A stretch of DNA of 64,000 bases from an uncultured Thermoplasmatales archaeon (GTDB lineage Archaea; Thermoplasmatota; E2; DHVEG-1): NCBI GenBank assembly GCA_964467345.1, contig CAYXPY010000007.1, positions 11,868 through 75,867 on the forward strand, in the 5' to 3' direction. Below are positions 5,001 to 48,731 of this stretch, piece by piece (position 1 is the stretch's first letter; every line of letters starts with the position of its first letter). Made by a program: the position numbers and the translations under genes. The notes under the pieces are model-generated. The model was not told where the DNA came from. It saw only the letters and a list, made by a program, of their open reading frames with translations, and ran no database searches.

Positions 5001-7106
5001 GTGTTCACCAACACTGGAAGGTGACCAGGTGAAATATGCCTCTGGTGCGACTCCGCCAGCGTAGTTTGTGCTGCTGCTCATCCAGTTGCTTGGGTAGTTG
5101 GTTCCCCAGCCTGCTGGTGGCACGCCACCGGAGAAGTCTTCTTCAAGAAGCGTGGTGTAGAGGGCTTTGCCGATGGTCATGTGCACGTTGACGCTCTCGG
5201 CGTTCTGACCCTTGTTGAAGATGACGACCTCAGGGGTCTGGGTCTGTGCAAGACCGTTCTGTGGTGAGACGATCTCTGTTATTGCGACATCATGGAGGTA
5301 CCCGTAGTGCAGGGTGAAGGCTTTCTCCTTGTAGTCGTTCTGGGTGTTCTCATCGACAAACAGGTTGGTTGCCTCTGCGTTGTAGTTAATGTTGACATTC
5401 TCAGAGACACCAAGCGCTGCAGGTGTCCAGGTTGGGAAGGAAACCTCTAAGGTTGTGTCTGGTGCAATCGAGGGGACCGTCACAGTCTGGCTGTATTCAT
5501 TCTGCCAACTGATGATGGTAAATCCGACATCATCGATGTACCACCCGGTGTATTGAACAGACGAGTCAGAAGCGGTTTCGAACATGATTTTACAGTCTTG
5601 TCCCTCATAGGCGCTTAAATCAAAGTTGGCTTGTTTCCAGCCACCACTTTGACCATTATAGGCGGCCTGTCCAGTCATGTACGGGTTATATGCCATGGAA
5701 CCAGGGTATCCTCCAACGGGGGTGATTATCGTCCAAGTGGTTCCACCATCGTTACTGATTTTGACGTTTCCACCATCATAATTGTTCTCAAAGTAGTACC
5801 AGTGCCAGAAGTTGAACAAGGCACCACTGGGGACGGTAAACGTCGGCGTCACAAGATAACACCACATGCTGGCTGGGTAGTTCCCGGCTAGGTTTGTCGC
5901 CCAGACGTTCGCACCATTGTGAGCAGCCATTGGCCCAGAGGTCGGTGCGCCCCATTGCCATGCATCAGGCTGTGGGAGCTTTGGCGCGTGAATGTAACTG
6001 CCGTTGGTCGCCTCGAAATCCTCAACAGTTCCCGTGACGACTTCAACACCGATGTCGAGCTTAATTTGGACGTTAGTCTCGGTGTTCAACCCGATGTTCT
6101 TCACTTTAACGATCGGGGTGATCGGGCCGGCGTTGCCGCTGGCTGGTTTGACAATACCGCTGATCGCGATATCATGGTCATATTGGAACGGTAACCAGGG
6201 GATGGCGAATCCATCGACTTCCATACCGCCTTCGAAGGCACCAACCAAGGTACAGGTTAAGCCGTCTAAGGTGTACAGACCAGCTGTGCCACTTTGGGTG
6301 TACCCAGCGATGTAGAAGATCTCATTGTCTCGATCATAGGCTGGGTCCTGTGCATACAAGAACCCGATGTTCAACGCACCAAGATCCGTAGCTGCACCGG
6401 ATGCTTTGTCAACGGAGTACAGATGGCTCATACCGCTGAACAACACATCATAACCATAGATATCACCGCTGTTATCACAGATGAGACCAATCAGGGTGTT
6501 TGCGATCCCGTGAGAACCAACAACGGTGGATGTTCCTGTTAACACATCAACGGTGTATAAGCTGCCGCCACCAGTTCCATACCAGGTAGCCGTAGTTGAA
6601 TCAAAGCACAACCCGTTCATACCCGGTGAGGGGCCCATTAAGGTCATGGTTCCATCATAATCGATATGATAGATCCCACCACCGTACTCGACACCATACC
6701 AGTTACCATCTGCATCGATGTCAGCACCGCCAATGAAGTTGGGGACGATACCGGCTTGCAATGATTCGATGGCATCAGGGGTATCAAAGGTGATTGGCCC
6801 TTCTGGATGTGCACCGGAGGGATCATACGCGTTATACGCATAGAAATAACCCCTGTCTAACAGTGGTGCATGTTGGGTCGGAATTCCCTTTGTTACCAAA
6901 GGTGATAACCCATCTGCTCGTGCTATATATTCTTTGTTCTCTGCATCTAGAGCTATGACGGGTATGCTATTTTGTGTCTTAGTTTCCTGTGGCCGTATCG
7001 CTGCAGACGCTGCAGTCCCTAAAAAGAGGGCAGCGACTAGGACGACGGTCATTAGAAACATAGTCTTCGCTAGCTTACTTTTCCATACACTATGTTTTGC
7101 TTTCAT
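2055..7106 (-). CDS. Giant secreted multi-domain protein (1683 aa): signal peptide, beta-propeller-like Gly/Tyr/Asp-rich N-terminal region, four MAM/choice-of-anchor-J-like modules each ending in a [WF][YF]xDD motif, and a C-terminal Ig-like module shared with the 29608 protein
   Basis: N-terminus MKAKHSVWKSKLAKTMFLMTVVLVAALFLGTAASA. Repeated motifs TGWYIDDVGF / NYWYVDDAWLG / AWYIWVDDVTLP / NNIFFDDLSL. C-terminal ~185 aa (TLAGTMGQSEWYVSSVTVTL...DKTAPVINAFTATAQNGLKTKWLLEAD...QQQYYTLLKQL) is about 70% identical to the C-terminus of the 29608..31374 protein. Confidence 0.7.
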   Translation of the reverse strand: MKAKHSVWKSKLAKTMFLMTVVLVAALFLGTAASAAIRPQETKTQNSIPVIALDAENKEYIARADGLSPLVTKGIPTQHAPLLDRGYFYAYNAYDPSGAHPEGPITFDTPDAIESLQAGIVPNFIGGADIDADGNWYGVEYGGGIYHIDYDGTMTLMGPSPGMNGLCFDSTTATWYGTGGGSLYTVDVLTGTSTVVGSHGIANTLIGLICDNSGDIYGYDVLFSGMSHLYSVDKASGAATDLGALNIGFLYAQDPAYDRDNEIFYIAGYTQSGTAGLYTLDGLTCTLVGAFEGGMEVDGFAIPWLPFQYDHDIAISGIVKPASGNAGPITPIVKVKNIGLNTETNVQIKLDIGVEVVTGTVEDFEATNGSYIHAPKLPQPDAWQWGAPTSGPMAAHNGANVWATNLAGNYPASMWCYLVTPTFTVPSGALFNFWHWYYFENNYDGGNVKISNDGGTTWTIITPVGGYPGSMAYNPYMTGQAAYNGQSGGWKQANFDLSAYEGQDCKIMFETASDSSVQYTGWYIDDVGFTIISWQNEYSQTVTVPSIAPDTTLEVSFPTWTPAALGVSENVNINYNAEATNLFVDENTQNDYKEKAFTLHYGYLHDVAITEIVSPQNGLAQTQTPEVVIFNKGQNAESVNVHMTIGKALYTTLLEEDFSGGVPPAGWGTNYPSNWMSSSTNYAGGVAPEAYFTWSPSSVGEHRLYTMDIDTTGYTALLLKFKEYVNDYNGDYDLKIQTSIDSGATWSDAYVRAGGPYGPATTEVALTAANGVGSATFRIAWDMSGDSFNINYWYVDDAWLGIIDMVEEYDETVTVDVVAGETVNAILPDWTPSDVPFAENIDYLVDVEATLNGFAEFYTYGFEDWVPTVPPQWQPPGWMIYNVNTGNAWVRSTTGQRSGVGCAKCTYDYAVQPNDDWLATGPVVVAPGGIFELWVDTYNYGDDEYEIYMSTTGNTPADFLSGTMLAGVYYPVPGVYTQYTFDMSAYVGQTVYFAIRYIGWYAWYIWVDDVTLPDGTFVGFEDAGTPEVPGYFPGWSQYTISGTDVDNKFDGVQSGTYPTCTPHGGSWMARYACWYISSGNSKLFVKDNSFDFTTADGYAMRLWMYHDTGYSGTTDRITVCASPDGANFYLLETINRYDGSTGWKQHSIGLSAFAGLPAVWIGFYGESFYGNNIFFDDLSLLEASLMDDGYPADNVLGKIITLSYEHDAGVIAITEPSGSAPKDEGWLQYDNGVYANAFGSTTGQIYGANRFTIDEQTPYIGWDLDMIRWKHYGAVAFSGNVHIYSAGSATAPGAEITTEPFSITGDDWFEVPLSSPVTLDGSDIWLCVEGTHNTGEYPLECSAPGITLKTAFFSSDGATWYDLPGLGYDVAFEIRGHVTSGGGGDEYWLPGTYPVEGIIQNLGVTFPEIDIPVNAQITNDTGVIVYDETVVVAGPVAPGGTAVVTFPDITIPEDPDAEGDYKLTMKTVLPGDDHPNNDKKTLSWIIRIPDTTPPTTEATLAGTMGQSEWYVSSVTVTLTAYDEKWPEGVDYTMYKVDNGEWTLYETPFQVTTDGQHTVYFYSVDKAVPPNTEEEKSISFKMDKTAPVINAFTATAQNGLKTKWLLEADATDATSGIVKVEFYADDALVGEDTDGAPYEFLVESKIHTAQCIVYDAAGNSKMSDVVTSFDYGNQQQYYTLLKQL

Positions 7107-7369
7107 AAAATTTTACCTCGCCTTACTCTTCTTAAATGCGTATGGTCTTAATAAATGTTTCGCACCAAATATATATATTAATATTTAAAATAAAATAAAA
7201 AGAATTGAAATAACTCCTCTGGAGAAAAACAGAAAAGAGACAGAGAAAAGAACCTTTCTACAGACCATTATATAATAAACGTATTAGAAATCAGATCCAA
7301 CCACCACACAGCCTAAGGAAATCCGCCCCCAACCAACAAAACCTGCTCTTTATAGTACATAATACATAT

Positions 7370-7410
7370 GTAGAAAAAAGAAAAAATCAATAAAAAAGAA
7401 AAAAAAGAGG
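7370..7410 (-). terminator. Oligo-T tract (minus strand) immediately after the stop of the 7414..9768 gene
   Basis: Plus-strand aaaaaagaaaaaatcaataaaaaagaaaaaaaaga directly 3' of the minus-strand TAA at 7414..7416. Archaeal terminators are oligo-T. Confidence 0.4.
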
Positions 7411-7413
7411 ATG

Positions 7414-9768
7414 TTAGGCGACGTTTACAAAAAACGGGCCTATCAACAGAGCGGTTGCGGTTTTTTCCAGTTCACCGACCGTGACAAGGATCTCCACCGA
7501 TCCAAGACCAAACACAAAACCGGTTTTGGCCTTCGGGGCAAACCCAGGCATGATCTTCTCAAACGAACCAGATGAATACCGGCCAAGAAGAATCAGGTTC
7601 CCCTGGATGGCAATCGACCAGTTCACATTCGTTGCAGCCCCAGCCCCCGTGTTCTTAATCGCTGCCGTGACACTCCCAACACCAGCGGAAATCTCCCCAA
7701 TCTCGATGCAGGGAAGCGCATCGATGTGGATGGAGGTTTCCTCGGACCAATCGCTTTCCAGGTCATCCGTGTCCTTTGCCTTGACCTTGATACTGTAGTC
7801 ACCTATGATCGTCCAGCTATGGTTCAAAACAACAGATTCACCAGAATCAAACGGACCAAGCCACCCAGTCATCTCATCACCCCAATAAACCATGTAATAC
7901 ACATCATTGTTCTGCGGGTCTGTCGTCAGGAACGTAAACGAATACTCAATCCCGATCTCTCCTGCGGTTGGCCCTAAAGGTTTATCAGGTATATCTGGCG
8001 GCGTGTTGATGTTCGTCTCCCCATTCCAGAGCTTCACGGATGAGTCACCAAGCACATTATACGCCTCAAAATAGTATTTTGTCAGACCTGACCCACCGTA
8101 ATATTCATAGAGATAGAACAGACCCTTATTGGTCATACCACCGATCATCTCAAGGTTATCCTCCCACCAGGCTTTAAACATCCGTTTCTCTAAGATATCA
8201 TCCTCATCCCAATAGGTCGAGGCAGACGCACCCCAGAACGCTATTGCCCCTTTGTTTTCAACCCGAAGCCATGTTTCACCAAAACATTCACCTTGGTTAA
8301 AGGGGTTTGTCGAACAGGCATGGCTACACACAAACGGATACATATAATAATTCTGAAGATTCTGCACATTACTTTGATCGAACGGAACACAGCCCCATCC
8401 TCCAGAGTACCCATGTCCCGAATAAACACACAGGCTTCGTCCATCGTTCAAAGCGTTTGTGACATCTGAAGTGCTTCCGCCCTGCGATTGATAAATCTTA
8501 TCACAGGTGTAGTTGTTTGGCGCAAGGTAGGTGTCAATCACATAGTTATGGGTATCCTCTGCCATCCCCCCTGCATCACTTGAGGCGAGAAACGCTGCTT
8601 TCTTTATCCAGGACTCGTCTGGGAACACACCAACCTCATAATAGATGGTTTTATCGACCATGATGGTCACATGCTCAGCGGTAGCGGCGGGAAAACGACT
8701 CACTATGAGATCAGCAAAATAATTCCCTTGATCAATCGTAGCATAATACAAATCAGTACACGAACTACTTTGCGTACCAGTCCACGTGGGAATCTGAGCA
8801 ACATCACCGACTAACAAGACATACACCGGAGGCGTCGTCCAGTTATTGAACGCATCAGCGATATAGCTTTTGATCATTTCTTTTGTGACACCACCCGGGA
8901 TCTCAGAGGTTGTCGTCACCGTGGTCTCAAAACCCAGGGAGTCTTTCCAGTCAGCAAACGGAGCAATCGCATCGACAAATGAATCATGAACAATAATTAG
9001 ATATCCTTCTTTCCGCGGTCCATTTCCCGTCGTCCCTTCCAACGCACCATAGTTGACAAACGAGGTGCGGAACAGTTGTTCAAACGAGGAAGTTGTATAC
9101 CGGTCAATCCTCTCAGCAGTCTTCACCAGATCGCTCCCCGGAAGCTCGATACGGATATCACAGCTGGTCATAATGCGTAATTTTCCAGTAGAAGGATTAT
9201 ACTGCACGGGAAATATACTCAGAAACGCGATGTTACGTCCTCGCAGTTCCCCAAGAGCACTGACCGTAGCGACATTCGAAGGCACAAACGAGTCCTGCGC
9301 ATAGAGGCTGTCATCAATAGTAAACGGTACCGTCGCACCCTCTATTTTTACCAAAGATTCCTGAACAGGGATCACCCATGAGGGAAGATGCAACGCGTCA
9401 AGTGATGTCGTCTCCCAGGTCACCGATTCAACAACAAACGCAGGAACCGCGCCCTGAGGAATTTCCAGAAACCGGGAAATCACCGGTAGCTGAGGCTGAC
9501 CAACAACTGTGGAAACCCCCTCGCCAGGTATTTCCACTGTTGCATAATTCTGCCCAGCAAGAATGCGTTGACCGAACGTTAACGGAGACGGTGTGATACT
9601 CACGGTGATATAAGGCTGGTCGGTATAATGAAACGTCGATGTGATACCATTTGAGTTCATAGAAAACGACTCACTCGTTGGATGAACTGCACTAACCCCT
9701 GCCGAGAAGAGAAGTATCAGTGCAACAGCTGCCTGAATAACCATTTTTTTCTTAGTACTAAGCTTCAT
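7414..9768 (-). CDS. Secreted peptidase C25 (gingipain-like) with C-terminal PKD domain plus CARDB-like beta-sandwich module
   Basis: Signal peptide MKLSTKKKMVIQAAVALILLFSAGVSA. YLIIVHDSFVDAIAPFADWK...LLVGD core. His/Cys dyad context VYSGHGYSGGWG and FVCSHACSTNPF. PKD signature YYMVYWGDEMTGWLGPFDSG...GDYSIKVKAKD. C-terminal ~100 aa (NTGAGAATNVNWSIAIQG...KTGFVFGLGSV) is homologous to the C-terminus of the adjacent M14 protein. Confidence 0.7.
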   Translation of the reverse strand: MKLSTKKKMVIQAAVALILLFSAGVSAVHPTSESFSMNSNGITSTFHYTDQPYITVSITPSPLTFGQRILAGQNYATVEIPGEGVSTVVGQPQLPVISRFLEIPQGAVPAFVVESVTWETTSLDALHLPSWVIPVQESLVKIEGATVPFTIDDSLYAQDSFVPSNVATVSALGELRGRNIAFLSIFPVQYNPSTGKLRIMTSCDIRIELPGSDLVKTAERIDRYTTSSFEQLFRTSFVNYGALEGTTGNGPRKEGYLIIVHDSFVDAIAPFADWKDSLGFETTVTTTSEIPGGVTKEMIKSYIADAFNNWTTPPVYVLLVGDVAQIPTWTGTQSSSCTDLYYATIDQGNYFADLIVSRFPAATAEHVTIMVDKTIYYEVGVFPDESWIKKAAFLASSDAGGMAEDTHNYVIDTYLAPNNYTCDKIYQSQGGSTSDVTNALNDGRSLCVYSGHGYSGGWGCVPFDQSNVQNLQNYYMYPFVCSHACSTNPFNQGECFGETWLRVENKGAIAFWGASASTYWDEDDILEKRMFKAWWEDNLEMIGGMTNKGLFYLYEYYGGSGLTKYYFEAYNVLGDSSVKLWNGETNINTPPDIPDKPLGPTAGEIGIEYSFTFLTTDPQNNDVYYMVYWGDEMTGWLGPFDSGESVVLNHSWTIIGDYSIKVKAKDTDDLESDWSEETSIHIDALPCIEIGEISAGVGSVTAAIKNTGAGAATNVNWSIAIQGNLILLGRYSSGSFEKIMPGFAPKAKTGFVFGLGSVEILVTVGELEKTATALLIGPFFVNVA

Positions 9769-9976
9769 TCTTCATATCCCCTATTAATTCTATTTATTCT
9801 CTATTTAACACTAACAAAATTCATATTTATATAGATATCGACTAGATGAAAACCTTCTTCTCCACCAAGAAGTCTAGGATTTCTCTCATCATGCTCTTCT
9901 CTCTTATACATACTCTCCTGTCATACGTTCTTTATTACAAGATAACCATCACATGTTTTGAGAAGGGAAAAACTTG

Positions 9977-12343
9977 CTAGGATCGGAGGAATACCAAGGG
10001 TCCCAGAAGAAACCCGGAAACAGATTTCTCAGCGACATCTGCTGTAACAAGAACCGTCACTGACCCGACGCCGAAGACAAAACCGGTTTTTATCTGGGGG
10101 CTGAACCCAGGGACGATCTTGAGTATCGTTCCCGTAGTCTCCCTTCCAAGGAGAACCACGCCACCCTGAAGAGAAATCGACCAGTTCACATCCACAGCAT
10201 CCCCAGCACCGGTGTTTGCCACCCTCGCGGTGATACCAAAACCACCGGTTATCTCAGCAATCTCTACACAGGGGGAATCTGTGATGTGAACGGTGATAGG
10301 ATCGGACCAGCCGCTTTCAATACCCGCACTGTCCTTTGCTTTCACCTTCACGGTATAGTCACCAGAGGCAGACCATTGATGTACGGCTTCTGCAGAGGCA
10401 TCAGAGTCAAACGGACCAAGCCAGTCGCTTATGCTATCACCCCAGGACCAGAGATAGTAGACCTGCTGACCCTCAGGATCGGTTGTACTAGTAATATATG
10501 AATAGTTGATAGCAGTCCCACCGGTGGTCGGACCAACAGGTTGATCAGGGTTATCCGGAGGTTGATTTGCGTTTGCTGCAGCAAGGTTCTGGACGGCATC
10601 GATATCAACAGCAGGGTTCAACTCACTGGGATTACCAGTGCCATCATCAACGATTTTTACGTAGCGGGCTGACTCCACCGAGCCAGCAGCAAGATCAAAC
10701 TCAGAAGTCCCCATCCCAGTTCCAAGCAACACCCAGGGGCCTTCCCAATCACTTGAGACATACACGGAATAGCCGTCCTCTGTTGTGTCCCCCTCGAAGA
10801 TCTTCAGGTCGTTCGCATCAGGGAAATTTGTGATCTGGTCAGCCATATCCACGATAATATATCCACCGACACCAAGCGATGCGCAGACGTCATCAGGAGG
10901 CCCGAGACAGGCGATACCCTCGGTGGGGTTCGTCTGATAATTATCGGAGGGAGCATAGTACGCGCAAGTCGTGACTTGGTATGCAAAATATTGGTTACTG
11001 GGGGTGAGTGCGACATTTAACACCGTTGGTTCTCCTTCATCGACATCAACGGTGTATGTTTTTTCCTGATACCCATTTGCTCGATAGTGGACGGTATACG
11101 TCCCAGGGAGCAGGATGCGATGATAGTCCCCAACCAAAGGATCTGTGAAACAAGGCCAGAACACCTCATCAACCCAGACGGTCGCAGCAATCGGCTGTCC
11201 GTTGTTCGCATTGGTCACCACACCGGTCAAGCCCATATCCGCTGCAGTGATGATATCCATCATCCCCTCACGATTCAGATCCCATGCTTGAGGGATGTTG
11301 GAAGTCTGCACTTCGATGGTCCAGTCGATGTCACCACGACACCCGTAACTAAAATCATTGCAATCCCCGAGGGTCTGATACCAGTCGTACCCCTCAACCA
11401 CCCAATACCCATTATGGGATGCGTACATCTCTGACAAATAGACGACGGCGTCATCGTCAGGGACACGTTGGTGTTTATAATTCCACACGTAGTTTACGAT
11501 GTTCCCGGAGCAGTGATACGACAGCGATAGCACAAAGTTATTTTCCAGTGCATTCTTGCGTATCGCTCGTGTCTCAGGCTCAGAATACGGGGTAGCGCTC
11601 TCCGGCATGTACCCATAATTTCTATTGAGATCAACCCCATGGGCATTGTATCGAGTACCTGCTTCACGTCCATCAGGATTCATCATTGGGATTATCCAAA
11701 TCTCTCTGTTGTCTACGAGGTTTGTAATCGTCGGATCAACACTATAGTTCTGGGTGAGATGAAACGCCAGATTCAGCGGAAGTTCCGCAGACATGTATTC
11801 ATTCCCATGATGAAGACCCATAATCCGAACCTCTGGTTCGTTCTCCTCGACATCCGGATTATCTGTAATCTGTAAACCCCAGATGCTCCTGCCTTGCACG
11901 CTTTTCCCAAGCTCGTGTAATCGTGCAATCTCCGGGTAGTCTGCCGCGATGTTTTGAAGTTCTGTGGTCATCTGCGCATAGTTGTGGAAATCACGAGCAA
12001 ACAAGGGAGAGAATAACCACCCGCGCTCCATTGCAATCTCATCAGGGACCAGCTTTGGAGAGAGATTCATAACCGTAAGCCAGTGATACTCCTCTGGTGA
12101 GATAAGGACAACAACAGATGTTCTAGTTTGGTCAATCTCAAGAATGGTCATTCGTTTCTGAAGTATCTGATCAAGCACGTATGAATCCGACAGCGGAACA
12201 GAGACGACAAGAGTCTCAACCGAGTATTGTGTGATGGTCTGTGCCGTGAGAAATCCCCCCAGCATCAGGGTGATGCAGAGGGTGAAAAAAACACAAAAGC
12301 TATAGGCTTTTCCAATTGTTTTCATTCGATGATTCATCTTCAA
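9977..12343 (-). CDS. Secreted zinc carboxypeptidase, peptidase family M14, with C-terminal PKD plus CARDB-like module
   Basis: M14 hallmarks YHNYAQMTTELQNIAADYPEIARLHELGKSVQGRSIWGLQIT, HHGNEYMS (HxxE zinc site), NPDGREAGTRYNAHGVDLNRNY, SYHCSG, DWTIEV. PKD segment YYLWSWGDSISDWLGPFDS...GDYTVKVKAKD. C-terminal ~100 aa parallels the 7414 protein. N-terminal hydrophobic segment. Confidence 0.85.
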   Translation of the reverse strand: MKMNHRMKTIGKAYSFCVFFTLCITLMLGGFLTAQTITQYSVETLVVSVPLSDSYVLDQILQKRMTILEIDQTRTSVVVLISPEEYHWLTVMNLSPKLVPDEIAMERGWLFSPLFARDFHNYAQMTTELQNIAADYPEIARLHELGKSVQGRSIWGLQITDNPDVEENEPEVRIMGLHHGNEYMSAELPLNLAFHLTQNYSVDPTITNLVDNREIWIIPMMNPDGREAGTRYNAHGVDLNRNYGYMPESATPYSEPETRAIRKNALENNFVLSLSYHCSGNIVNYVWNYKHQRVPDDDAVVYLSEMYASHNGYWVVEGYDWYQTLGDCNDFSYGCRGDIDWTIEVQTSNIPQAWDLNREGMMDIITAADMGLTGVVTNANNGQPIAATVWVDEVFWPCFTDPLVGDYHRILLPGTYTVHYRANGYQEKTYTVDVDEGEPTVLNVALTPSNQYFAYQVTTCAYYAPSDNYQTNPTEGIACLGPPDDVCASLGVGGYIIVDMADQITNFPDANDLKIFEGDTTEDGYSVYVSSDWEGPWVLLGTGMGTSEFDLAAGSVESARYVKIVDDGTGNPSELNPAVDIDAVQNLAAANANQPPDNPDQPVGPTTGGTAINYSYITSTTDPEGQQVYYLWSWGDSISDWLGPFDSDASAEAVHQWSASGDYTVKVKAKDSAGIESGWSDPITVHITDSPCVEIAEITGGFGITARVANTGAGDAVDVNWSISLQGGVVLLGRETTGTILKIVPGFSPQIKTGFVFGVGSVTVLVTADVAEKSVSGFLLGPLVFLRS

Positions 12344-12626: not shown

Positions 12627-13019
12627 TCATGATTGGTGTGTATTGAGGATTCGAACAATACAATCCTTGAGTTTCATAATATCAAAAGGTTTTACGATAT
12701 AATCCTCTGAACCGAGACGTCCGATACCCATGCTCATCTCATCGCCTTTCGCTGTGAGAAAGACAATTGGGACCGACCGCCAACGGTCATTTTCTTTAAT
12801 ACGTGCTGCGACATCCCAGCCGCTCATTTGTGGCATCATTATATCTAATAGGATAAGATCTGGGATCTGGTTTTGCTGTAACATCTTGAGGCATTTCTCC
12901 CCGCTGTCCACCCCGATAACTTGATATTGTCCGGTTGAATCTTCTAAGACTTGTTTGACGGAGATGAGGATATCGGGATAGTCATCAACCACGAGAATTA
13001 TTTTTGGCATCCACCCCAA
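12627..13019 (-). CDS. Single-domain response regulator (CheY-like receiver)
   Basis: KIILVVDDYPDIL...DLILLDIMMPQMSGWDV...VPIVFLTAKGD...YIVKPF receiver signature with phospho-acceptor Asp context. About 60% identical to the 46888..47289 paralog. True start may be the internal MPKIIL. Confidence 0.85.
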   Translation of the reverse strand: MGWMPKIILVVDDYPDILISVKQVLEDSTGQYQVIGVDSGEKCLKMLQQNQIPDLILLDIMMPQMSGWDVAARIKENDRWRSVPIVFLTAKGDEMSMGIGRLGSEDYIVKPFDIMKLKDCIVRILNTHQS

Positions 13020-13235: not shown

Positions 13236-14441
13236 ATGCTAAATACCGCTGATGTTACAAAAAAGTTTATTGAGACGATAATCGAAATCATTGGGAGGAA
13301 AACATCAGAAGAATACGCAGCGATAACGATACGTAACATACTCGAAAAACTCCAACGCACCTATCCTTTCTTAACAGAAATCGAAGTGAAAAATTCTCGG
13401 TCCGTCGAAATGGAAGAAAAAGTCACAGCCCACGAGGGACTCAACGACATTGCTCCAAAAAAGGTGGGAGTGGCTTTAAAGCATCTTATCACAATAATAA
13501 TGAACTCCCTTGGAAAAACCGCTGGTTATTTCTTTATCAGAGAGGCACGGGAAAAGATAGGCGTCGAATATGAACTGATTCTGCTCAAGACAATGGATGT
13601 TGATCTGACGCTTTTGCAGTCTACCTATATTATTGAAAAAAAATCTGTCGATCTTCTTGAGATTCACACCTCTGATGTGCTCCGACGTTTTTTACGGGCG
13701 TTCCTCGATGCATTGGAAAAACAAACATCAAAAACTTTTGCCATAACATTTCTCATTAAACAACTATCCCAACTGCAACAGGACTATCCATTTCTTACCG
13801 CTGTCTCCATTCAAAACATACGTTATACGCTCGGATCAGAGGAAATTGGGGTACAACCTCAGATAGATACTATTGACCCAAAGGAAGTAGGAAAAGCGAT
13901 TAATTCGATTCTCCAGCAGACCGATAAAGAACTCATAGAACTTGGTCGTAATTCCATCGCAGGTGACCTCAAATCACATCTCACCATGGAGTATATCTCA
14001 AAATTGGGAGATATGGAGGTAACCATAACCCCATACAGCATTGGGTATAGCGCGATATTCATTCAGGTGATAAAGACATTAATCGACGTTATCAGCAAGA
14101 CAAGTAACGAGAACTATGCGATTATTGCGGTGAATTCGTTTCTAAGAAAGGGTGACAGCAAGTTTGAATTCTTAAAGGACGTCAATGTTCAACCACCTGA
14201 TAATAAAGAGGGAATGTACCATATCACGATACCTCAGAGGATTGATTCTATTACGGAAACTGACGCCCGACGTGTTATCCAGCAGCTTCTCTCGATTGCT
14301 TTGGAGTCATCTGGGGAAAAAACAAACGGTGAATTTATCCAACAATTCAAAGGTGCTCTAGAGAAAAAATATCTTTTAAAACTAGAGGAGATGGGCGTCA
14401 ATTTTCATATGATCGAATTACATAAAGCGATGTCGATGTAA
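13236..14441 (+). CDS. Hypothetical protein built from three tandem copies of an unrecognised ~110-130-aa domain (same domain occurs once in the 27391 protein)
   Basis: Three internal repeats sharing [GS][RK][KQ]TS..YA[IV]...L...YPFL..[IV].[IV]...P.[KE]VG.A[IL]...G..AG.FFI.E.R.K.G...MGVDL.L.Q. Examples: GKTAGYFFIREAREKIG...TMDVDLTLLQ and 27391 protein GENAGHFFIKEIRNKLG...DMGVDLGLMQ. No membrane segments. Confidence 0.55.
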   Translation: MLNTADVTKKFIETIIEIIGRKTSEEYAAITIRNILEKLQRTYPFLTEIEVKNSRSVEMEEKVTAHEGLNDIAPKKVGVALKHLITIIMNSLGKTAGYFFIREAREKIGVEYELILLKTMDVDLTLLQSTYIIEKKSVDLLEIHTSDVLRRFLRAFLDALEKQTSKTFAITFLIKQLSQLQQDYPFLTAVSIQNIRYTLGSEEIGVQPQIDTIDPKEVGKAINSILQQTDKELIELGRNSIAGDLKSHLTMEYISKLGDMEVTITPYSIGYSAIFIQVIKTLIDVISKTSNENYAIIAVNSFLRKGDSKFEFLKDVNVQPPDNKEGMYHITIPQRIDSITETDARRVIQQLLSIALESSGEKTNGEFIQQFKGALEKKYLLKLEEMGVNFHMIELHKAMSM

Positions 14442-14560: not shown

Positions 14561-15982
14561 ATGAAAGAACCGCTCGACCTAAAAAAATTTTTCTTAAGTA
14601 GAATAAATGTGAAACTTACATTACTGTTCCTATTAGTGGGCTTGGTCGCCCCGGGAATTGGAATCGGATATTTCTATCTTATCGCAAACTCATTCCTGAT
14701 AGAAAATTCTCAATTTTTTAGTCAGCAACAAATGCTCTTAGACGCTGCAGCACTTCTCATCATCGTTCTTATCGCTGTCAATACCATGCTTATTGGATTT
14801 CTGATTTCACGTTCATTTTCTAAACCAATCCGAGATCTTTACCACGCTGCTTTAGAGTTAGAAAAAGGGAATTTTACCGTCAGGACCAACATACAGACAA
14901 ATGATGAGCTTGCGCAGCTCAGTGAAGCATTTAACAGAAGCGCGTTTGCGTTAAGTAAAATGGAGGAGGAACGTCTCAATCTTGACCGGTCGAAATCAGA
15001 ATTCCTCAGCATCACTTCCCATGAACTACGCACCCCAATCACACCCCTAAAAGCGCAACTACAGATGCTGCAGCAGGAGTATTTTGGCAAGCTGACAGAC
15101 AAACAAAAACAAAGTGTCGATGTTATCCTGCGCAATGCGGAACGACTCAATAAAATCATCGAGGATTTCCTTGAAATCTCCCGTATCGAAGCAGCACGGT
15201 TGAAATTTGTTTTTAAAAAGACAAATCTCTCAGATATTATCACAGAGACCGCCGAATTTATGAAAGGATTTGCTAAGGAGAAAAATATCACTCTTGTTAC
15301 AAAATGTGGTCAACTTCCCACCATTGAAATCGACCCTGACCGAATCAGCCAGGTCCTTCGGAACCTTGTACATAACGCAATCAAATTCTCACCAAAAGAC
15401 AGCACCATAGAAATCGATGCCCAGATGCAAAACCATCATGTTCGCTTCAGCGTCAAAGACAGAGGAGTTGGGTTGAACGCTGATGACCAGATCCGAGTCT
15501 TTGAACCATTCTATCAAGTGCAAGGGTCCCTTAGCCGAAACTATGGGGGGACCGGATTAGGTTTAACGATCTGTAGAGGGATCATCGAAGCCCAAAAAGG
15601 AAAAATATGGGTCGAAAGTAAACCGGGGGTAGGCAGCACGTTCTATTTCACCGTGCCCATTACACCTGTGTATGAAATAGAACCAATCAAAGTCCTCTTC
15701 TCACAGAAAAGCGAAATTGAAAAGAAAATAAAAAAAGAACTCATGAACACGCTTGGACCCATGGGCGAGGCTGAGTTCAACGACCTGAAAAACAAACATT
15801 CCCTGAATAAGGAGGACCTTGTCGGGTATGTTCTCTTGCTAGAAAAACAACGTATCTTGCGCCATTCACACGCAGAAGAGCTAAAACGAAACATCGGGAA
15901 TATTTTTGGTGAAGAAAACCGAAAAGAAGAAAACAAACCACAAGATAAAGAAATAAAAGGAGAACTCCAGGTGAAACAATGA
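14561..15982 (+). CDS. Membrane sensor histidine kinase (2 TM, HAMP-like linker, HisKA, HATPase_c) with K/E-rich C-terminal extension
   Basis: Two N-terminal hydrophobic helices. H-box SHELRTPITPLKAQLQML. N/G boxes HNAIKFSP...DRGVGL...GGTGLGLTICRGIIEAQKGKIWVES. ATGA overlap with the downstream PAS gene. Confidence 0.85.
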   Translation: MKEPLDLKKFFLSRINVKLTLLFLLVGLVAPGIGIGYFYLIANSFLIENSQFFSQQQMLLDAAALLIIVLIAVNTMLIGFLISRSFSKPIRDLYHAALELEKGNFTVRTNIQTNDELAQLSEAFNRSAFALSKMEEERLNLDRSKSEFLSITSHELRTPITPLKAQLQMLQQEYFGKLTDKQKQSVDVILRNAERLNKIIEDFLEISRIEAARLKFVFKKTNLSDIITETAEFMKGFAKEKNITLVTKCGQLPTIEIDPDRISQVLRNLVHNAIKFSPKDSTIEIDAQMQNHHVRFSVKDRGVGLNADDQIRVFEPFYQVQGSLSRNYGGTGLGLTICRGIIEAQKGKIWVESKPGVGSTFYFTVPITPVYEIEPIKVLFSQKSEIEKKIKKELMNTLGPMGEAEFNDLKNKHSLNKEDLVGYVLLLEKQRILRHSHAEELKRNIGNIFGEENRKEENKPQDKEIKGELQVKQ

Positions 15983-17142
15983 GATTACGATGGTTAGTAA
16001 CCATTATGTGCCTTGTCATATCCCTAATACCCGTGGCAATGATCAGTGGGCTACAAGGTCTAGAAATTGCTACCTTATTTCTTGGATTAATTCTTTTTAT
16101 CACGCTTGCCGTTGCGTTTGTCGTTTCGTATATAATCACCATACCACTAGAGAAACTCACAAGGAACATAGACGAGATAAGCAAAGGAAACCTCGAAGTC
16201 CAACTTGAGAAAAGCGAAATCTATGAAATAAATAATCTGACAGACTCCTTGGATCGTGTCATGGCAAGCCTCAAACTCGCAATCAATAAAGTCGGGGTGA
16301 AAAAAGAGGAAATCTTCATAGAAGCGGTAAAAGCAAAAGAAGAAGCAGAAGCAAAATATGAAATCCTGCTCAAAAAAATCGATGGATGGATCTGGGAAAT
16401 CGATAAAAATGGTATCTGCACAAAATGCTCATCAAAAATCACAAACACTCTTGGCTACTCACCAAAGCAGATGATCGGAAAGGACATATTCCGATTTTTA
16501 CCAGCAGAGGACGCCAACAAATTCAGAGACATAATCCATGTTCTATCAGAGCAAAAATCGGAGACATCAAATAAATTGGATTTATACTGGACGACCCAGG
16601 ACAACGCACACCCTGTATGGGTGCGCTCGTTTTGTATCCCTGTGTTTACTGCTGCGGGTGACTTCCAAGGCCTGCGTTGTTTTAGTAGGGATGCGACAGA
16701 ATATCATGTCGCTGAATCCAAAATAGCTGAACTGGAAAACAAATTAAGTGATGCCTATAAACAACTCCACGAATTTCTTCAGAAGCATCCGTATGAAAAA
16801 CAAACCATCAGCCCAGTCGTTGAGACGGTCCTACAACAGGACTTTGATTACATGATTCTCTTTGATGAAAACGCTAAGATTATCGATTGCACCGAAGACA
16901 TTCAGAAAAAACTAGGGTATAACAAACAGGAGATGCTCTCTCTTGCTTTTTCAGATGTTTTATATCTTGATTCTCACAAGGATTTCAAGACAAGTTTAGA
17001 GGAAATAAAAAAACAAGGGAACATCCAACTAAAAAACATCCATAAGAAAAAAGACGGATCTTCGATTTTTGTCAGCGAGCATATCAGATACCTCAAAGAT
17101 CGGAATTTGTTCATCTGCATGGTAAAACAGGATAGAATGTGA
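15979..17142 (+). CDS. Membrane-anchored PAS-domain protein without a kinase output (HAMP-like plus 2 PAS)
   Basis: N-terminal TM helices. Coiled linker. PAS-like blocks (DGWIWEIDKNGICTKCSSKITNTLGYSPKQMIGKDIF...). Start overlaps the HK stop (ATGA). Confidence 0.7.
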   Translation: MRLRWLVTIMCLVISLIPVAMISGLQGLEIATLFLGLILFITLAVAFVVSYIITIPLEKLTRNIDEISKGNLEVQLEKSEIYEINNLTDSLDRVMASLKLAINKVGVKKEEIFIEAVKAKEEAEAKYEILLKKIDGWIWEIDKNGICTKCSSKITNTLGYSPKQMIGKDIFRFLPAEDANKFRDIIHVLSEQKSETSNKLDLYWTTQDNAHPVWVRSFCIPVFTAAGDFQGLRCFSRDATEYHVAESKIAELENKLSDAYKQLHEFLQKHPYEKQTISPVVETVLQQDFDYMILFDENAKIIDCTEDIQKKLGYNKQEMLSLAFSDVLYLDSHKDFKTSLEEIKKQGNIQLKNIHKKKDGSSIFVSEHIRYLKDRNLFICMVKQDRM

Positions 17143-18964: not shown

Positions 18965-19258
18965 ATGATTGTCGCATCACTAAGCATCGCGCCGCTCGGA
19001 AAAGGAACCAGCGTAAGCAGCTACGTAAGAATCGTCCTAGAAACCCTCAAAAAAGAACAGATAACCTACAAAACAAACGCAATGTCAACAGTCATCCAAA
19101 CAAAGGATTTGGAAACCCTATTCAGTGTGATCCAGAAAGCACATCACGCGGTGGCAACGGCAGGGGCAGAACGAATCATCACAGAAATAAAAATCGATGA
19201 CCGACGAGACAAAGAAGCAACAATCGACACTAAACTCCAATCAGTCCAACAAAAATAA
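18965..19258 (+). CDS. MTH1187/YkoF-family protein (DUF77, thiamine-binding-like fold)
   Basis: MIVASLSIAPLGKGTSVSSYV...AMSTVIQTKDLETLFSVIQKAHHAV...RIITEIKIDDRRDK closely follows the MTH1187 family pattern. Confidence 0.7.
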   Translation: MIVASLSIAPLGKGTSVSSYVRIVLETLKKEQITYKTNAMSTVIQTKDLETLFSVIQKAHHAVATAGAERIITEIKIDDRRDKEATIDTKLQSVQQK

Positions 19259-19283
19259 ACACAAAGGGTTTCAAAACAGTTAT

Positions 19284-19904
19284 ATGGCCCATCTTCATTT
19301 CGGGTTGCGGGAAGGTAATATCGTGTCATCAAAATCCTTAGTGGAAATATGTTTTCATGGACGAGGCGGACAAGGCGCAGTGACAGCCGCTAACCTTCTT
19401 GCAAGCGCAGCCTTACAAGATGGTAACAAAGGCGTTCAAGCGTTCCCATTCTTTGGTGCAGAACGAAGAGGAGCCCCGGTTAGAGCATTTGCCCGAATAT
19501 CGGGAGAAGAAATCCACTTACGAAGCGAAATCTACAATCCGGATATCGTCATCGTCCTTGACGAAAGCATCATGGAGCTCGTCGATGTGCTGAAAGGGGT
19601 TAAAGACGATGGGAAAATCCTAATAAACACCAGACGGAAACCCCAGGATTTCGAGTTTTCAAAAACCTATCATGTCGCAACCGTTGATGCAACAGCAATA
19701 GCACTCAAATATGAAATTCTTGTCGGCGGAATCCCTGTCGTCAACACACCAATCCTTGGTTCGGTGCCGAAGATATTAGATCGGGTCACCCTCCAATCGA
19801 TACAACAGGTGATTCTCGGGAAATGGACTGGTAAAAAAGAACTCGGGGAGCGAAACAGGAAGGCTACGCAGGATGCATACGATCAGACGGAGGTGAACTT
19901 TTGA
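19284..19904 (+). CDS. porG: Pyruvate/2-oxoacid:ferredoxin oxidoreductase gamma subunit
   Basis: EICFHGRGGQGAVTAANLLASAA...FPFFGAERRGAPV signature. The ORF-track start at 19197 overlaps the upstream gene. ATG at 19284 (or the GTG just before EICFHG) is more plausible. Confidence 0.8.
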   Translation: MAHLHFGLREGNIVSSKSLVEICFHGRGGQGAVTAANLLASAALQDGNKGVQAFPFFGAERRGAPVRAFARISGEEIHLRSEIYNPDIVIVLDESIMELVDVLKGVKDDGKILINTRRKPQDFEFSKTYHVATVDATAIALKYEILVGGIPVVNTPILGSVPKILDRVTLQSIQQVILGKWTGKKELGERNRKATQDAYDQTEVNF

Positions 19905-20173
19905 AGAAATACCCAGTTGAGACCAGTCTGTCCTATCCGAAAAAAGGTGCAATGGGAAAAACAGGCAGCTGGCGCGTATTCAAACCCATCCTTGACAAAA
20001 AAAAATGTGTCAAATGCCTCCGATGTTGGATCTTTTGCCCTGAAGGCTGCATCCGTCGTGAGAAGGATGATTCAGTCAGCATCGATTACGATTACTGTAA
20101 AGGCTGCGGCGTCTGCGCCAACGAATGCAACGTCAAAGCAATCATCATGGAACGAGAGGAGGCAAAGAAATAA
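19901..20173 (+). CDS. porD: Pyruvate:ferredoxin oxidoreductase delta subunit (2x[4Fe-4S] ferredoxin)
   Basis: CVKCLRCWIFCPEGCI and CKGCGVCANECNVKAI cluster motifs. ATGA overlap with porG. Confidence 0.85.
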   Translation: MKKYPVETSLSYPKKGAMGKTGSWRVFKPILDKKKCVKCLRCWIFCPEGCIRREKDDSVSIDYDYCKGCGVCANECNVKAIIMEREEAKK

Positions 20174-21327
20174 TGACAATCATGATGGATACCGGGAACC
20201 GTATCGCGGCAAAAGCAGCAATCATGGCAAAACCAGAGGTTGTGGCAGCATACCCCATCACACCACAGACGACACTTGTCGAGGCCATCGCAGAATATGT
20301 CGCCAACGGCGAATACAAAGGAGAATATATCTGCGTGGAAAGTGAACATTCCGCAATGTCTGCCTGCATTGGGGCAAGTGCGGCAGGCTCACGGACGTTT
20401 ACTGCGACCTCATCCCATGGCTTGTTATTGATGCATGAGATGCTCCATTGGGCGGCCCTTGCACGACTCCCGGTTGTCATGTGCAACATCAACCGGGTTA
20501 TAGGACCAGGATGGAACATCTGGGTTGACGAGAACGATTCGATTTCACAAAGAGACACCGGATGGATTCAATATTACTGTAGTAGCAACCAGGAGATTTT
20601 TGACACGGTCATTCAAGCATTCAAACTCGCAGAACATGAAAAAGTCGTCTTACCAGTCATGGTGAACCTCAACGCATTTATCCTCTCACATACCTCAATG
20701 CCTGCAGAAATCCCAAAACAACAGGTGATCGATGACTTTCTCGGAAAATATATCGCACAATGGAAAAGCGATGTCGAGAACCCCACCACCTTTGGCAACA
20801 TCATCGGTCCAGCACATTACTATAAGATACGACGAGCAATGCAAGACGCACAGAACCACGCAAAAAAACTCATCCCGCAGATTGCAAAAGATTGGAAAAA
20901 AGCCTCAGGATACTTCCATGGGGATTTATTGGAACATTACAGATGCGACGATGCAGAACACATCCTCCTGTCGATGGGTGCGATTGGGGCAGAAAGCAAA
21001 ATCGCTATCGATAATTTACAAAAAGAAGGACATAAAATCGGTCTTGCCCGCGTCCGGGTAATACGACCGTTTCCCACAGAAGACATCATCAAATTGGGGA
21101 AACAAGCAAATCTCATCGTCATCGATAGGAACATCTCTGTTGGTTTAGAAGGTGTTCTTTTCAATGAAACAAAAGCAGCATTATATAACAAGGCTGATAC
21201 AAAAGTAACCGGTTTCATCGCAGGTCTCGGTGGAAAAGACGTCACCTATAAGGACATTGAAACTATGTGTAAAAAAGCAATACAAGGCTCACTTGCAGAA
21301 CAAGAATGGTACGCGATGGAGGACTAA
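20173..21327 (+). CDS. porA: Pyruvate:ferredoxin oxidoreductase alpha subunit
   Basis: MTIMMDTGNRIAAKAAIMAKPEVVAAYPITPQT...EHSAMSACIGASAAGSRTFTATSSHGLLLM typical POR alpha. Start ATG overlaps porD TAA (TAATG). The ORF-track N-extension is rejected. Confidence 0.85.
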   Translation: MTIMMDTGNRIAAKAAIMAKPEVVAAYPITPQTTLVEAIAEYVANGEYKGEYICVESEHSAMSACIGASAAGSRTFTATSSHGLLLMHEMLHWAALARLPVVMCNINRVIGPGWNIWVDENDSISQRDTGWIQYYCSSNQEIFDTVIQAFKLAEHEKVVLPVMVNLNAFILSHTSMPAEIPKQQVIDDFLGKYIAQWKSDVENPTTFGNIIGPAHYYKIRRAMQDAQNHAKKLIPQIAKDWKKASGYFHGDLLEHYRCDDAEHILLSMGAIGAESKIAIDNLQKEGHKIGLARVRVIRPFPTEDIIKLGKQANLIVIDRNISVGLEGVLFNETKAALYNKADTKVTGFIAGLGGKDVTYKDIETMCKKAIQGSLAEQEWYAMED

Positions 21328-21330
21328 ACA

Positions 21331-22242
21331 ATGGCACTAAAAGATTTCCCCATTGATGAATGCCTTCTTCAAGGAAACGCAGCCTGCCCAGGATGCCCAG
21401 CAACAATCGGACTGCGCCTGGTGCTCAAGGCACTGGGAAAAAAGACCGTCATGGTTGTCCCAGCGTGTTGTACAGCAGTCATTGAAAGCCTGTATCCCTA
21501 TACCTCCTTTGACATCCCTGTTATGAACATTGCTTTTGAGGCAGCAGCTGCAGGTGCATCTGGTGTCGAGGCAGCATTACGACAGCAGGGACGCACAGAC
21601 ATTACCGTGGTCGCATGGGCTGGAGATGGGGGCACCTATGACATCGGTATCCAGGCACTCTCAGGTGCATTAGAAAGAGGAACCAATTTCATATACATCT
21701 GCTACAACAATCAGATCTACTCCAACACCGGTATCCAACGCAGTGGAGCGACCCCCTTTGCAGCATGGACCACGACGACCGTGGGTGGGAAAAATGAGTT
21801 CAGAAAAGAGATGGGAGAAATCATCCTTGCCCATCACATCCCTTATGCGGCTCAGACATGCATCAGCTATCCTGAGGACGTCTACAATAAAATAACAAAA
21901 GCAAAGAGCATCAAAGGCCCAAAATACATCGAGATCCTCGCACCCTGCCCTCCAGGTTGGCGATTCAGCATGGACAAAACCGTAGAGATGGGAAGATTAG
22001 CTGTTGATTCCGGTGCCTGGTCATTGTGGGAATGTGAAAACGATGCGATGACGTTTAACGGTAAAAGCAAGCTTCTTTTAGAAAAAAAGATCCCTCGTAA
22101 ACCGGTGGAGGACTGGATAAAGTACCAAGGGCGTTTCAGCCATCTTTTCAAACCACAGCGAGATGAGAAACGACTCAAAGCAATAGAGGAGTACGTTGAT
22201 AACATCTGGGAACGCTACCGAAAATGCTATCTGAAAGAGTAA
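21331..22242 (+). CDS. porB: Pyruvate:ferredoxin oxidoreductase beta subunit (TPP-binding)
   Basis: GCPGCPATIGLRLVLKALG...AWAGDGGTYDIG...CYNNQIYSNTG TPP-binding motifs. Confidence 0.85.
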   Translation: MALKDFPIDECLLQGNAACPGCPATIGLRLVLKALGKKTVMVVPACCTAVIESLYPYTSFDIPVMNIAFEAAAAGASGVEAALRQQGRTDITVVAWAGDGGTYDIGIQALSGALERGTNFIYICYNNQIYSNTGIQRSGATPFAAWTTTTVGGKNEFRKEMGEIILAHHIPYAAQTCISYPEDVYNKITKAKSIKGPKYIEILAPCPPGWRFSMDKTVEMGRLAVDSGAWSLWECENDAMTFNGKSKLLLEKKIPRKPVEDWIKYQGRFSHLFKPQRDEKRLKAIEEYVDNIWERYRKCYLKE

Positions 22243-23120: not shown

Positions 23121-23136
23121 AAGACCCCGTGCAAGA

Positions 23137-27390: not shown

Positions 27391-27840
27391 CTAGGACTGT
27401 TTTTTTCGTTCGGAAAGATCTTTTTCCAATCTGCTTATTTCACTTTCCAGCTGCATCAAACCAAGATCGACACCCATATCTTTCATGACACTTATGTTAT
27501 CATCACCAAGTTTATTGCGTATTTCCTTAATAAAGAAATGACCTGCGTTTTCGCCTAATGAACGATTCATTGAATCGATAATAGAGTGGATTGCATTTCC
27601 CAACTGGGTTGGTGGTACTTTATTAATATCTGACATGACGCTGATAACATCACCTGATTCTTCCTTATAGAAATCGGTGTTGATATGAATGTGTTTCAGA
27701 AACCTGTACTGAGTTTCCAAACGTTTCATAAGATCTTCAATCGTCATCACCGCATAAGGGAAATCGGTTTTTCTACTCGAAATTGAAATCAATGTTTTTA
27801 ACACGTTCTTCATGATTTCTGATTTTTCTGGTGACGACAT
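27391..27840 (-). CDS. Hypothetical protein carrying one copy of the repeat domain found in triplicate in the 13236 protein
   Basis: FPYAVMTIEDLMKRLETQYRFLKHIHI...QLGNAIHSIIDSMNRSLGENAGHFFIKEIRNKLG...KDMGVDLGLMQ aligns with each repeat of 13236..14441. ORF-track start is a TTG; ATG (MSSPEK) with GGAG upstream preferred. Confidence 0.55.
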   Translation of the reverse strand: MSSPEKSEIMKNVLKTLISISSRKTDFPYAVMTIEDLMKRLETQYRFLKHIHINTDFYKEESGDVISVMSDINKVPPTQLGNAIHSIIDSMNRSLGENAGHFFIKEIRNKLGDDNISVMKDMGVDLGLMQLESEISRLEKDLSERKKQS

Positions 27841-28027: not shown

Positions 28028-28453
28028 ATGAAGAAAGTCGTATTAGGTGTTGTGACCGTTTTTATCTGTTTAGGTGTGTTACTAAGCGGGTGTCAAGATA
28101 CAAGTAGCGTAAAAACAAAGCAGATTCCAGAAAATGTGTCTCTTGAGGCAACAATAGTAGAGTTTGCAAACGTGACTTTTGAGAAAAATCTAAATGATAC
28201 CGATGGAACTCAATACGTAACGGTTGGTTGGTTGTTCCATAACATCGCAGGTAGAGTAATCAGTGCACGTATCGACGTGAAGTTCTATGATGAAAATGAT
28301 TTCTTGCTTTATAATGCTACAAAATACATAAACAATATACCCATTGATTTCACTGAACGAATGATGCAAGAATCAAACAAAGTATCATATAGGGGAAAAA
28401 ACGCTGCCATGGTTGACCACGTGGTTATTTTTGTTAGTGAAATAACCGTCTAG
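28028..28453 (+). CDS. Putative lipoprotein, hypothetical
   Basis: MKKVVLGVVTVFICLGVLLSGCQDTSS: signal peptide with lipobox-like LSGC. Confidence 0.5.
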   Translation: MKKVVLGVVTVFICLGVLLSGCQDTSSVKTKQIPENVSLEATIVEFANVTFEKNLNDTDGTQYVTVGWLFHNIAGRVISARIDVKFYDENDFLLYNATKYINNIPIDFTERMMQESNKVSYRGKNAAMVDHVVIFVSEITV

Positions 28454-29060: not shown

Positions 29061-29061
29061 T

Positions 29062-47289: not shown

Positions 47290-47348
47290 AGCATCTATCC
47301 CTCAAGATATGTATTCATCGTTCCTTCTTTAGTTTTTTCATACGGCCC

Positions 47349-48713: not shown

Positions 48714-48731
48714 TCAAATTCCTATACTTTA

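Follow-up and report, generated by a model that had tools for sequence, protein, structure and literature searches.

A triple-repeat domain family of Thermoplasmatota as a candidate partner of CheY-like receivers

The 64,000-nucleotide stretch of DNA analyzed here, referred to as the window (positions 11,868 to 75,867, forward strand, of contig CAYXPY010000007.1, assembly GCA_964467345.1), comes from an uncultured Thermoplasmatales archaeon and contains a gene for a 401-amino-acid (aa) protein made of three diverged copies of one domain, next to a stand-alone CheY-like receiver. In what follows, DOM denotes this domain of ~130 aa, 3x the triple-repeat protein, S a single-copy paralog encoded elsewhere in the window, and REC a receiver domain. 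Genes for DOM proteins recur beside, or fused to, members of a single receiver clade, and we propose, with a probability of roughly 0.6, that DOM is a non-enzymatic, lineage-specific partner (adaptor or output) of this dedicated CheY-like clade. An earlier note on this DNA had suggested that the triple-repeat protein could be an adaptor or output component of the adjacent signaling pathway, an idea that gains comparative support from REC adjacency, gene fusions and the dedicated REC clade.

Three diverged copies of one domain

The 3x gene, its repeats and the paralog S are located as follows.

13236..14441, + strand: 3x gene, 401 aa, three diverged DOM copies (open reading frame with internal repeats)
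13236..13661, + strand: repeat R1, aa 1-142, the best-conserved copy, with all four motifs and nearest to the S family
13662..14045, + strand: repeat R2, aa 143-270, the most degenerate copy
14046..14438, + strand: repeat R3, aa 271-401, whose G-V-N-L motif holds the sole invariant positions across the 3x family (G387, N389)
27391..27840, - strand: S, 149 aa from its ATG, one DOM copy plus a C-terminal helix (BLASTP to R1-R3, AlphaFold2)

The 401-aa protein was cut into R1, R2 and R3 and compared pairwise by BLASTP, with alignments spanning ~120-130 residues. Identities were 25% for R1-R2 (E 6e-16), 23% for R1-R3 (E 1e-12) and 19% for R2-R3 (E 8e-4), and S aligned with R1 at 32% (E 3e-25), with R3 at 23% (E 8e-15) and with R2 at 24% (E 1e-10). 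Given these E-values, the three-repeat observation is real and far beyond chance. The three copies and the single one in S described in the earlier note are thus confirmed, with the correction that the unit measures ~130 aa, not ~110 aa. The four core motifs listed there are complete in R1 and S, kept only in part in R3 (e.g., FEFL, MGVNF) and degenerate in R2, where G..AG.FFI and MGVDL are affected.

A DNA-level alignment of the three repeats had been put forward as a test for duplication, and no DNA-level repeat was found among R1, R2 and R3. In a tree of the repeats of 14 proteins drawn from across the family, the nearest neighbor was the same repeat position in another protein for R1 in 14/14 cases, for R2 in 11/14 and for R3 in 14/14, and S formed its own clade, closest to R1. 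A homolog that shares 22% identity with the window protein is also collinear with it through R1, R2 and R3. Because repeats group by position in distant homologs and no DNA-level repeat is present, the comparison indicates that the triplication is ancient, a fusion of three diverged DOM copies; a recent tandem duplication is ruled out by the missing DNA repeat and the family-wide grouping by position. AlphaFold2 (AF2) modeled 3x with a mean predicted local distance difference test score (pLDDT) of 84.3 and a predicted template modeling score (pTM) of 0.41, i.e., as three confident domains whose mutual arrangement is not confident, and a compact pseudo-trimer is unsupported by this pTM. The 197 homologs of 3x are annotated as hypothetical throughout, save for one stray JGI label on P0225.

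DOM genes accompany one clade of receivers

Pfam searches bore out the neighborhood reported earlier at 12.6-17.1 kb, a divergent CheY-like regulator together with a membrane kinase and a PAS protein:

12627..13019, - strand: stand-alone CheY-like receiver, 130 aa (Response_reg E 6e-25), divergent from 3x
14561..15982, + strand: membrane histidine kinase, HAMP-HisKA-HATPase_c (Pfam), 120 nt downstream of 3x
15979..17142, + strand: protein with HAMP and two PAS domains, without a kinase core (Pfam), its start overlapping the kinase stop by 4 nt

The locus qualifies as a two-component system by its HisKA and HATPase_c kinase and a REC with intact acceptor residues, the receiver retaining DD12-13, D59, T89 and K110 in the REC alignment. 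As listed, the receiver open reading frame begins at TTG 13019; homologs and the sequence itself favor ATG 13010 (MPKIILVVDD...), which is likely the true start. The HAMP-PAS protein is probably membrane-anchored, because it has N-terminal hydrophobic stretches. The kinase is found in the same order in four further loci (L001, L003, L069, L072).

When the gene neighborhoods of 3x homologs were compared, as the earlier note had proposed, the linkage to REC was found to be conserved. Adjacency of 3x and REC occurs in at least six distinct gene arrangements, with homologs down to ~19-22% identity. The arrangements around DOM genes, in gene order, are:

Window, L003, L069, L072: REC divergent from 3x, histidine kinase and PAS genes
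L067, L079: histidine kinase, REC, 3x, with gaps of 5-7 nt
L005: REC, 3x, REC-DOM fusion
L078: REC, 3x, with a kinase absent nearby
L081: dCache histidine kinase, 3x, REC, one-copy DOM protein
L082: REC, DOM-REC fusion, one-copy DOM protein, PAS protein
L079: histidine kinase, DOM-winged-helix protein, REC

The REC-adjacent distant homologs are ~19-30% identical to the window 3x and their surrounding genes differ. We regard these distant homologs in unrelated surroundings as the decisive comparative evidence for the predicted REC link. As a background, only 2/57 S loci had a REC within 8 kb.

Fusions of the two domains exist in both orders. REC-DOM proteins (P0344 and P0405-P0408, 274 aa) form five 90%-identity clusters from several ENA and JGI samples, and the reverse order, DOM-REC, is represented by P0409 (297 aa). 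In the alignment and tree of receivers, all DOM-adjacent and DOM-fused receivers fall into a single clade, marked by the signature FLTAK.D..S.G.G immediately behind the conserved Thr, and the window receiver is a member of this clade (FLTAKGDEMSMGIG). The clade also takes in the receivers of L071, 3.6 kb from 3x, and L066, 0.9 kb from a gene for a DOM-winged-helix protein. Four other receivers on the same contigs, including one in the window (46888-47289), form a separate clade with the signature FLTAR.D..A..AG.FL. An aminotransferase gene also accompanies DOM genes at several loci; identity among the enzymes of the window, L078 and L082 is no higher than 21-25%, and we therefore take this adjacency as coincidence.

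Distribution and architectures of the family

A profile search of 1.84 billion cluster representatives returned only 360 matches at E<=1e-3, and all 69 DOM loci in the GTDB species set come from Thermoplasmatota metagenome-assembled genomes (MAGs). The named source organisms of 3x and S homologs are likewise all Thermoplasmatota/Euryarchaeota MAGs, Thermoplasmatales archaeon SM1-50 included, and the homologs are nearly all nameless or labeled hypothetical. DOM therefore appears, within these databases, to be confined to one Thermoplasmatota clade. The genome survey relied on S-derived patterns, so the sampling of 3x loci is biased. Copy numbers among the 149 new representatives from the profile search were:

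Three DOM copies: 64 representatives
One DOM copy: 59 representatives, 15 of them with an unmatched region >50 aa
Two DOM copies: 25 representatives, many of them probably fragments
Four DOM copies: 1 representative

Most of the 15 unmatched regions are C-terminal extensions; that of P0344 is its N-terminal REC. About ten proteins of ~300 aa share a conserved C-terminal segment of ~150 aa, consisting of a linker and a probable winged helix (here DOM-wHTH). The matches of this extension are weak but consistent (HTH_45, wHTH-PRTase_assc, TrmB, RQC and MarR-type PDB entries). An origin of DOM-wHTH as a fusion of S with EarA, the regulator type found next to S (see below), was rejected, as hhalign did not find the extension similar to the EarA-like protein.

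Two minor observations concern these architectures. A profile of the DOM-wHTH extension (alignment A6) gave, beside the MarR-type matches, an insignificant match (E 0.055) to residues 228-330 of CheF (PDB 7ovp), which probably reflects a shared winged-helix-like element. In P0290 (265 aa), just the first ~40 residues of a receiver are joined straight to a complete DOM copy and a partial one; the protein is either a truncated pseudo-receiver fusion or an artefact of assembly or gene calling.

A mostly helical domain without detectable relatives

The earlier note had called the domain unrecognized, and searches of Pfam, NCBIfam, PDB sequences and PDB folds agree. Neither the 3x nor the S protein of the window matched a Pfam or NCBIfam family even at E<=1, and no Pfam family recurred among the 149 diverse DOM members at E<=0.01. 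The only genuine Pfam matches in that set were Response_reg in two proteins and an AAA fragment in another, which is probably mis-called. Named archaeal output-domain (OD) families and HalX were included at the same thresholds: the window proteins did not match HalOD1 (PF18545), MetOD1 (PF18546), HalOD2 (PF18547), MetOD2 (PF18548), NitrOD1/2/5, TackOD1 (PF18551) or HalX (PF08663), and none of these was among recurrent families of the 149 members. PDB sequence searches with single proteins and with the profile found nothing significant.

The AF2 model of S (pLDDT 90.5, pTM 0.85) is mostly helical, with eight helices and one two-stranded hairpin. A Foldseek search of the PDB, also proposed earlier, left DOM unmatched: the best hit of the S model had E 1.9 and a TM score below 0.4, and the triple-repeat model gave no match. 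With no relative detected by sequence or by structure, DOM would found a Pfam-type family of its own and might represent a new fold. DOM thus matched no well-characterized family and its two-component linkage is conserved, the opposite of what the earlier note had listed as evidence against a signaling role.

In a set of 310 non-redundant copies of the domain, conservation falls mostly on hydrophobic core residues; beyond these it covers an R-R-T-S turn that links helices 1 and 2, the motif F-I-x-E-x-K and the motif G-V-[ND]-L...Q. Conserved His, Cys or acidic positions are absent from this set, none reaching even 50%, which argues against an enzyme or an Hpt-type relay. The invariant phospho-accepting His of Hpt domains is absent from DOM, and the AG[HYF]FF position varies.

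The paralog S belongs to an EarA-like and archaellin locus

S, with 343 homologs, is more conserved than 3x (70-93% versus 57-91% identity among the 120 best matches listed for each). As mechanically listed, its open reading frame starts at TTG 27879. S is not linked to two-component genes, and its position in an EarA-like/archaellin locus was missed in the earlier note. Two neighbors in the window are:

28028..28453, + strand: small lipoprotein-like gene, divergent from S, a neighbor in 45/57 S loci and with a homolog beside 3x in L080
29062..29442, - strand: EarA-like winged-helix regulator (PF07381, E 4e-26), on the same strand as S

The conserved neighbors of S are the small lipoprotein, a CARDB/PGF-CTERM-like surface protein and a protein of 110-126 aa, which in the window is the EarA-like regulator. 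Where flanking sequence was sufficient, the module EarA-like regulator, surface protein, lipoprotein, S was present in 14/15 close and 23/32 distant loci. In L038, L045 and L053 rearrangements have left the EarA-like gene immediately beside S. In Methanococcus and Pyrococcus, EarA switches on transcription of the archaellum operon, and no DOM-like partner protein of EarA is described in this literature (PMC5512572, PMC10665913).

In more distant Thermoplasmatota (L029-L057, L073, L074), S lies upstream of archaellin genes: 25/33 distant S loci have 4-5 tandem archaellin genes 131-285 nt downstream of S on the same strand. In the complete genome CP070712 (L073), Pfam identifies, in this order, the EarA-like protein, the CARDB protein, the lipoprotein, S and four Arch_flagellin genes, and genes for phosphofructokinase and T2SSF/T2SSE (ArlJ/ArlI-like) proteins converge on this S-archaellin block. 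One 3x subgroup (P0292, and P0301 of locus L080) also has archaellin genes as neighbors. Between 3x and these genes, in the P0292 locus and in L080 (1715-2134, - strand), lies a gene homologous to that of the S-adjacent lipoprotein (31% identity, E 8e-24), so that a DOM gene, this lipoprotein and archaellins occur together a second time in another arrangement.

Two features of the S locus in the window are of minor note. The CARDB/PGF-CTERM-like gene that usually lies between the EarA-like and lipoprotein genes seems lost or degraded here, because only a junk-looking 116-aa open reading frame (28761-29111) occupies the place. Convergent with S at 26900-27304 (+ strand) is a 134-aa zinc-ribbon protein (CxxC...CxxC) without a Pfam match, whose gene is conserved beside S only in the close lineage of the window (20 loci).

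Proposed role and competing explanations

In the mechanism that we favor, DOM would be a non-catalytic module for protein-protein contacts. The membrane HAMP kinase (14561-15982) would phosphorylate the divergent receiver (12627-13019), and the adjacent HAMP-PAS protein may modulate receiver phosphorylation. The phosphorylated receiver would then bind one or more repeats of 3x, which could offer up to three non-equivalent sites, R2 being degenerate, and 3x would relay the signal via contacts with other proteins, possibly S, the EarA-like regulator or DOM-wHTH proteins. Physical binding of REC to DOM, its dependence on phosphorylation and the nature of the output are what we infer. A possible target is archaellin expression or archaellum function, and this is the likely downstream area, because S is found in the EarA-like module and, in most divergent lineages, upstream of archaellins and because the family has members with a probable winged helix.

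Several observations weigh against the proposed receiver-partner role. The window-type gene block shares synteny of aminotransferase and pyruvate:ferredoxin oxidoreductase genes and so largely reflects common ancestry; with these downstream genes syntenic too, the window-type order alone is weak evidence. In a recurrent context (L063, L065, L068, L070, L071, L077), 3x is not REC-adjacent and the gene order is an Lhr-type helicase, a 140-aa membrane protein, 3x, HMG-CoA synthase/thiolase/DUF35 and HTH_3. The 140-aa protein is conserved, has no Pfam match and is absent in L065 and L068, the latter retaining only the helicase-3x pair; L070 has a cut-off REC fragment ~4.3 kb from 3x. Thermoplasmatales archaeon SM1-50 has also lost the adjacent REC, and no REC remnant was present when one was looked for there. 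AF2 did not predict a defined three-domain assembly of 3x (pTM 0.41, as above), and the winged helix of DOM-wHTH is weakly supported and not detectably EarA-like. With respect to the archaellum, S has no adjacent archaellins in the lineage of the window (L007-L025, 0/19 loci), where the EarA-like and lipoprotein genes are kept; this suggests loss or relocation of the archaellin array, with S and the EarA-like gene left in place. No archaellum gene was found among the window open reading frames scanned.

The alternative that survives best, which we nevertheless consider unlikely, is that DOM is a small-ligand sensor acting on the input side. REC-DOM proteins would then be comparable to REC-PAS regulators, DOM-wHTH proteins would be one-component transcription factors that respond to a ligand and 3x a cytoplasmic multi-site sensor feeding the kinase. 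DOM is N-terminal in DOM-wHTH, the usual position of a sensor, 3x lies just upstream of the kinase in the window, and Galperin et al. caution that REC-associated "output" domains may be inputs (PMC5847659). However, DOM has no conserved His, Cys, acidic cluster or other obvious ligand-binding signature and does not resemble sensor folds such as PAS, GAF, V4R and HNOB. The 70-93% identity of S across genera (among the best matches listed) would be unusual for such a sensor, and a co-evolving, dedicated REC clade with fusions in both orders fits a REC partner better.

Tight coupling of REC and DOM genes, with several receivers around DOM genes in L005, L079 and L082, could also be expected if DOM acted on the phosphoryl group, either as a receiver phosphatase (CheZ, CheC/CheX or Spo0E-like) or as an Hpt-like relay between receivers; the L005 order of REC, 3x and REC-DOM might suggest phosphotransfer. 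The start of the last DOM helix carries a fairly conserved G-V-[DN]-L-x-x-x-Q, which we take to be loosely reminiscent of the Asp/Gln pair of CheZ. Its D/N and Q positions are just 50-60% conserved, though, and are lost in R2; the lack of an invariant His speaks against Hpt, and neither Pfam nor fold searches matched DOM to CheZ, CheC, Hpt or Spo0E. We judge this explanation very improbable.

No more credible for 3x is the view that the DOM family primarily serves the archaellum locus, e.g., as a chaperone of archaellins, in assembly or as a co-factor of EarA, with the two-component linkage of 3x secondary or coincidental. It would account for S being the most conserved member, placed between EarA-like and archaellin genes, and for the broad synteny of the window-type block. 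For S it overlaps with the receiver-partner reading, and it fails only for the 3x gene: coincidence does not account for two separate REC fusions, six or more different gene orders beside REC and a receiver clade dedicated to DOM, and S and the EarA-like gene persist where archaellins are no longer adjacent. The probability we give it is small. The V4R or roadblock (LC7/MglB) type of small-ligand-binding regulator fold, a guess of the earlier note backed here by no more than the indirect hint that MetOD1 (an archaeal REC-associated domain of ~140 aa) reportedly resembles HNOB/V4R, is similar to DOM in size and presumed regulatory role but can practically be set aside, given no hidden Markov model match to V4R (PF02830), Roadblock/LC7 (PF03259, Robl_LC7), HNOB or MetOD1 (same thresholds as above), no Foldseek signal, no conserved Cys cluster and a helical topology with one beta-hairpin in place of an alpha/beta sandwich.

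Relation to known archaeal signaling systems

The output of archaeal two-component systems has been argued to be mostly protein-protein, via unidentified contacts, and lineage-specific REC-associated domains (HalOD1/2, MetOD1-5, NitrOD1-5, TackOD1, AcidOD1) are usually stand-alone and rarely REC-fused (Galperin, Makarova, Wolf & Koonin 2018, PMC5847659). DOM resembles these OD domains in its narrow phyletic range, mostly stand-alone occurrence, several paralogs per genome, rare REC fusions and a presumed role in protein-protein signaling, and TackOD1 also combines with a winged helix. Unlike them, it has no sequence match to the OD families present in Pfam and comes from a Thermoplasmatota clade outside the 2018 census, in which 11 Thermoplasmata genomes had just 3 kinases and 4 regulators between them (PMC5847659). 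It goes beyond the OD precedent in its conserved triple-repeat form, its own REC clade and the location of one paralog in an archaellum/EarA locus. Given REC fusions, stand-alone forms and a narrow distribution, and since no named family was matched, DOM is by these descriptive features a newly described archaeal REC-associated domain. A literature search on two-component systems of this clade found nothing relevant.

A second comparison is with CheF (DUF439), the adaptor that in archaea connects CheY-P to the archaellum switch ArlCDE. Like CheF, DOM is archaea-specific and tied by genomic context to CheY-like receivers and the archaellum locus, so that a functional analogy is possible. In contrast to CheF, it has no Pfam DUF439 match, Foldseek found no CheF structure with the S and 3x models, and neither CheA nor CheW is encoded nearby. 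EarA is a neighbor of S and not DOM itself. A more ambitious version of our proposal, which we hold to be doubtful, would make DOM a new fold and the missing CheY-like output link in Thermoplasmatota, a CheF-independent adaptor system in which 3x would read phosphorylation of the REC clade and, through DOM-DOM or DOM-winged-helix contacts with S and the EarA-like regulator, pass it on to the transcription of archaellin genes or the working of the archaellum.

Some 40% of the response regulators of archaea consist of a receiver domain alone, and hardly any of their targets have been identified. For one receiver clade, the DOM family, lineage-restricted and known from MAGs alone, provides a specific candidate partner that can be tested, with gene fusions in both orders and a plausible physiological read-out in the EarA/archaellin locus. 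Its hosts, uncultured archaea of sediments, are abundant, and little else is understood of their regulation.

Other genes of the window

A second two-component cluster without a DOM gene lies at 46888-51624 (- strand):

46888-47289, - strand: receiver of the FLTAR clade
47349-48713, - strand: PAS-HisKA-HATPase kinase
48732-49370, - strand: 212-aa protein with a weak, sub-threshold V4R match (E 5e-4)
49339-51624, - strand: protein with five PAS domains

A pyruvate:ferredoxin oxidoreductase operon is located at 19197-22242, and coenzyme A genes are scattered over 22248-24336 (- strand) and 53126-53881 (- strand), encoding a GHMP-family kinase, a DFP flavoprotein and a phosphopantothenate synthetase (PPS_PS). 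The regions 2055-12343 (- strand) and 36345-38876 (+ strand) hold a dense set of large secreted peptidases, comprising a 1683-aa InhA-like/MAM protein, two C25 gingipain-like peptidases with PKD domains and an M14 carboxypeptidase, which fits a protein-degrading sediment archaeon.

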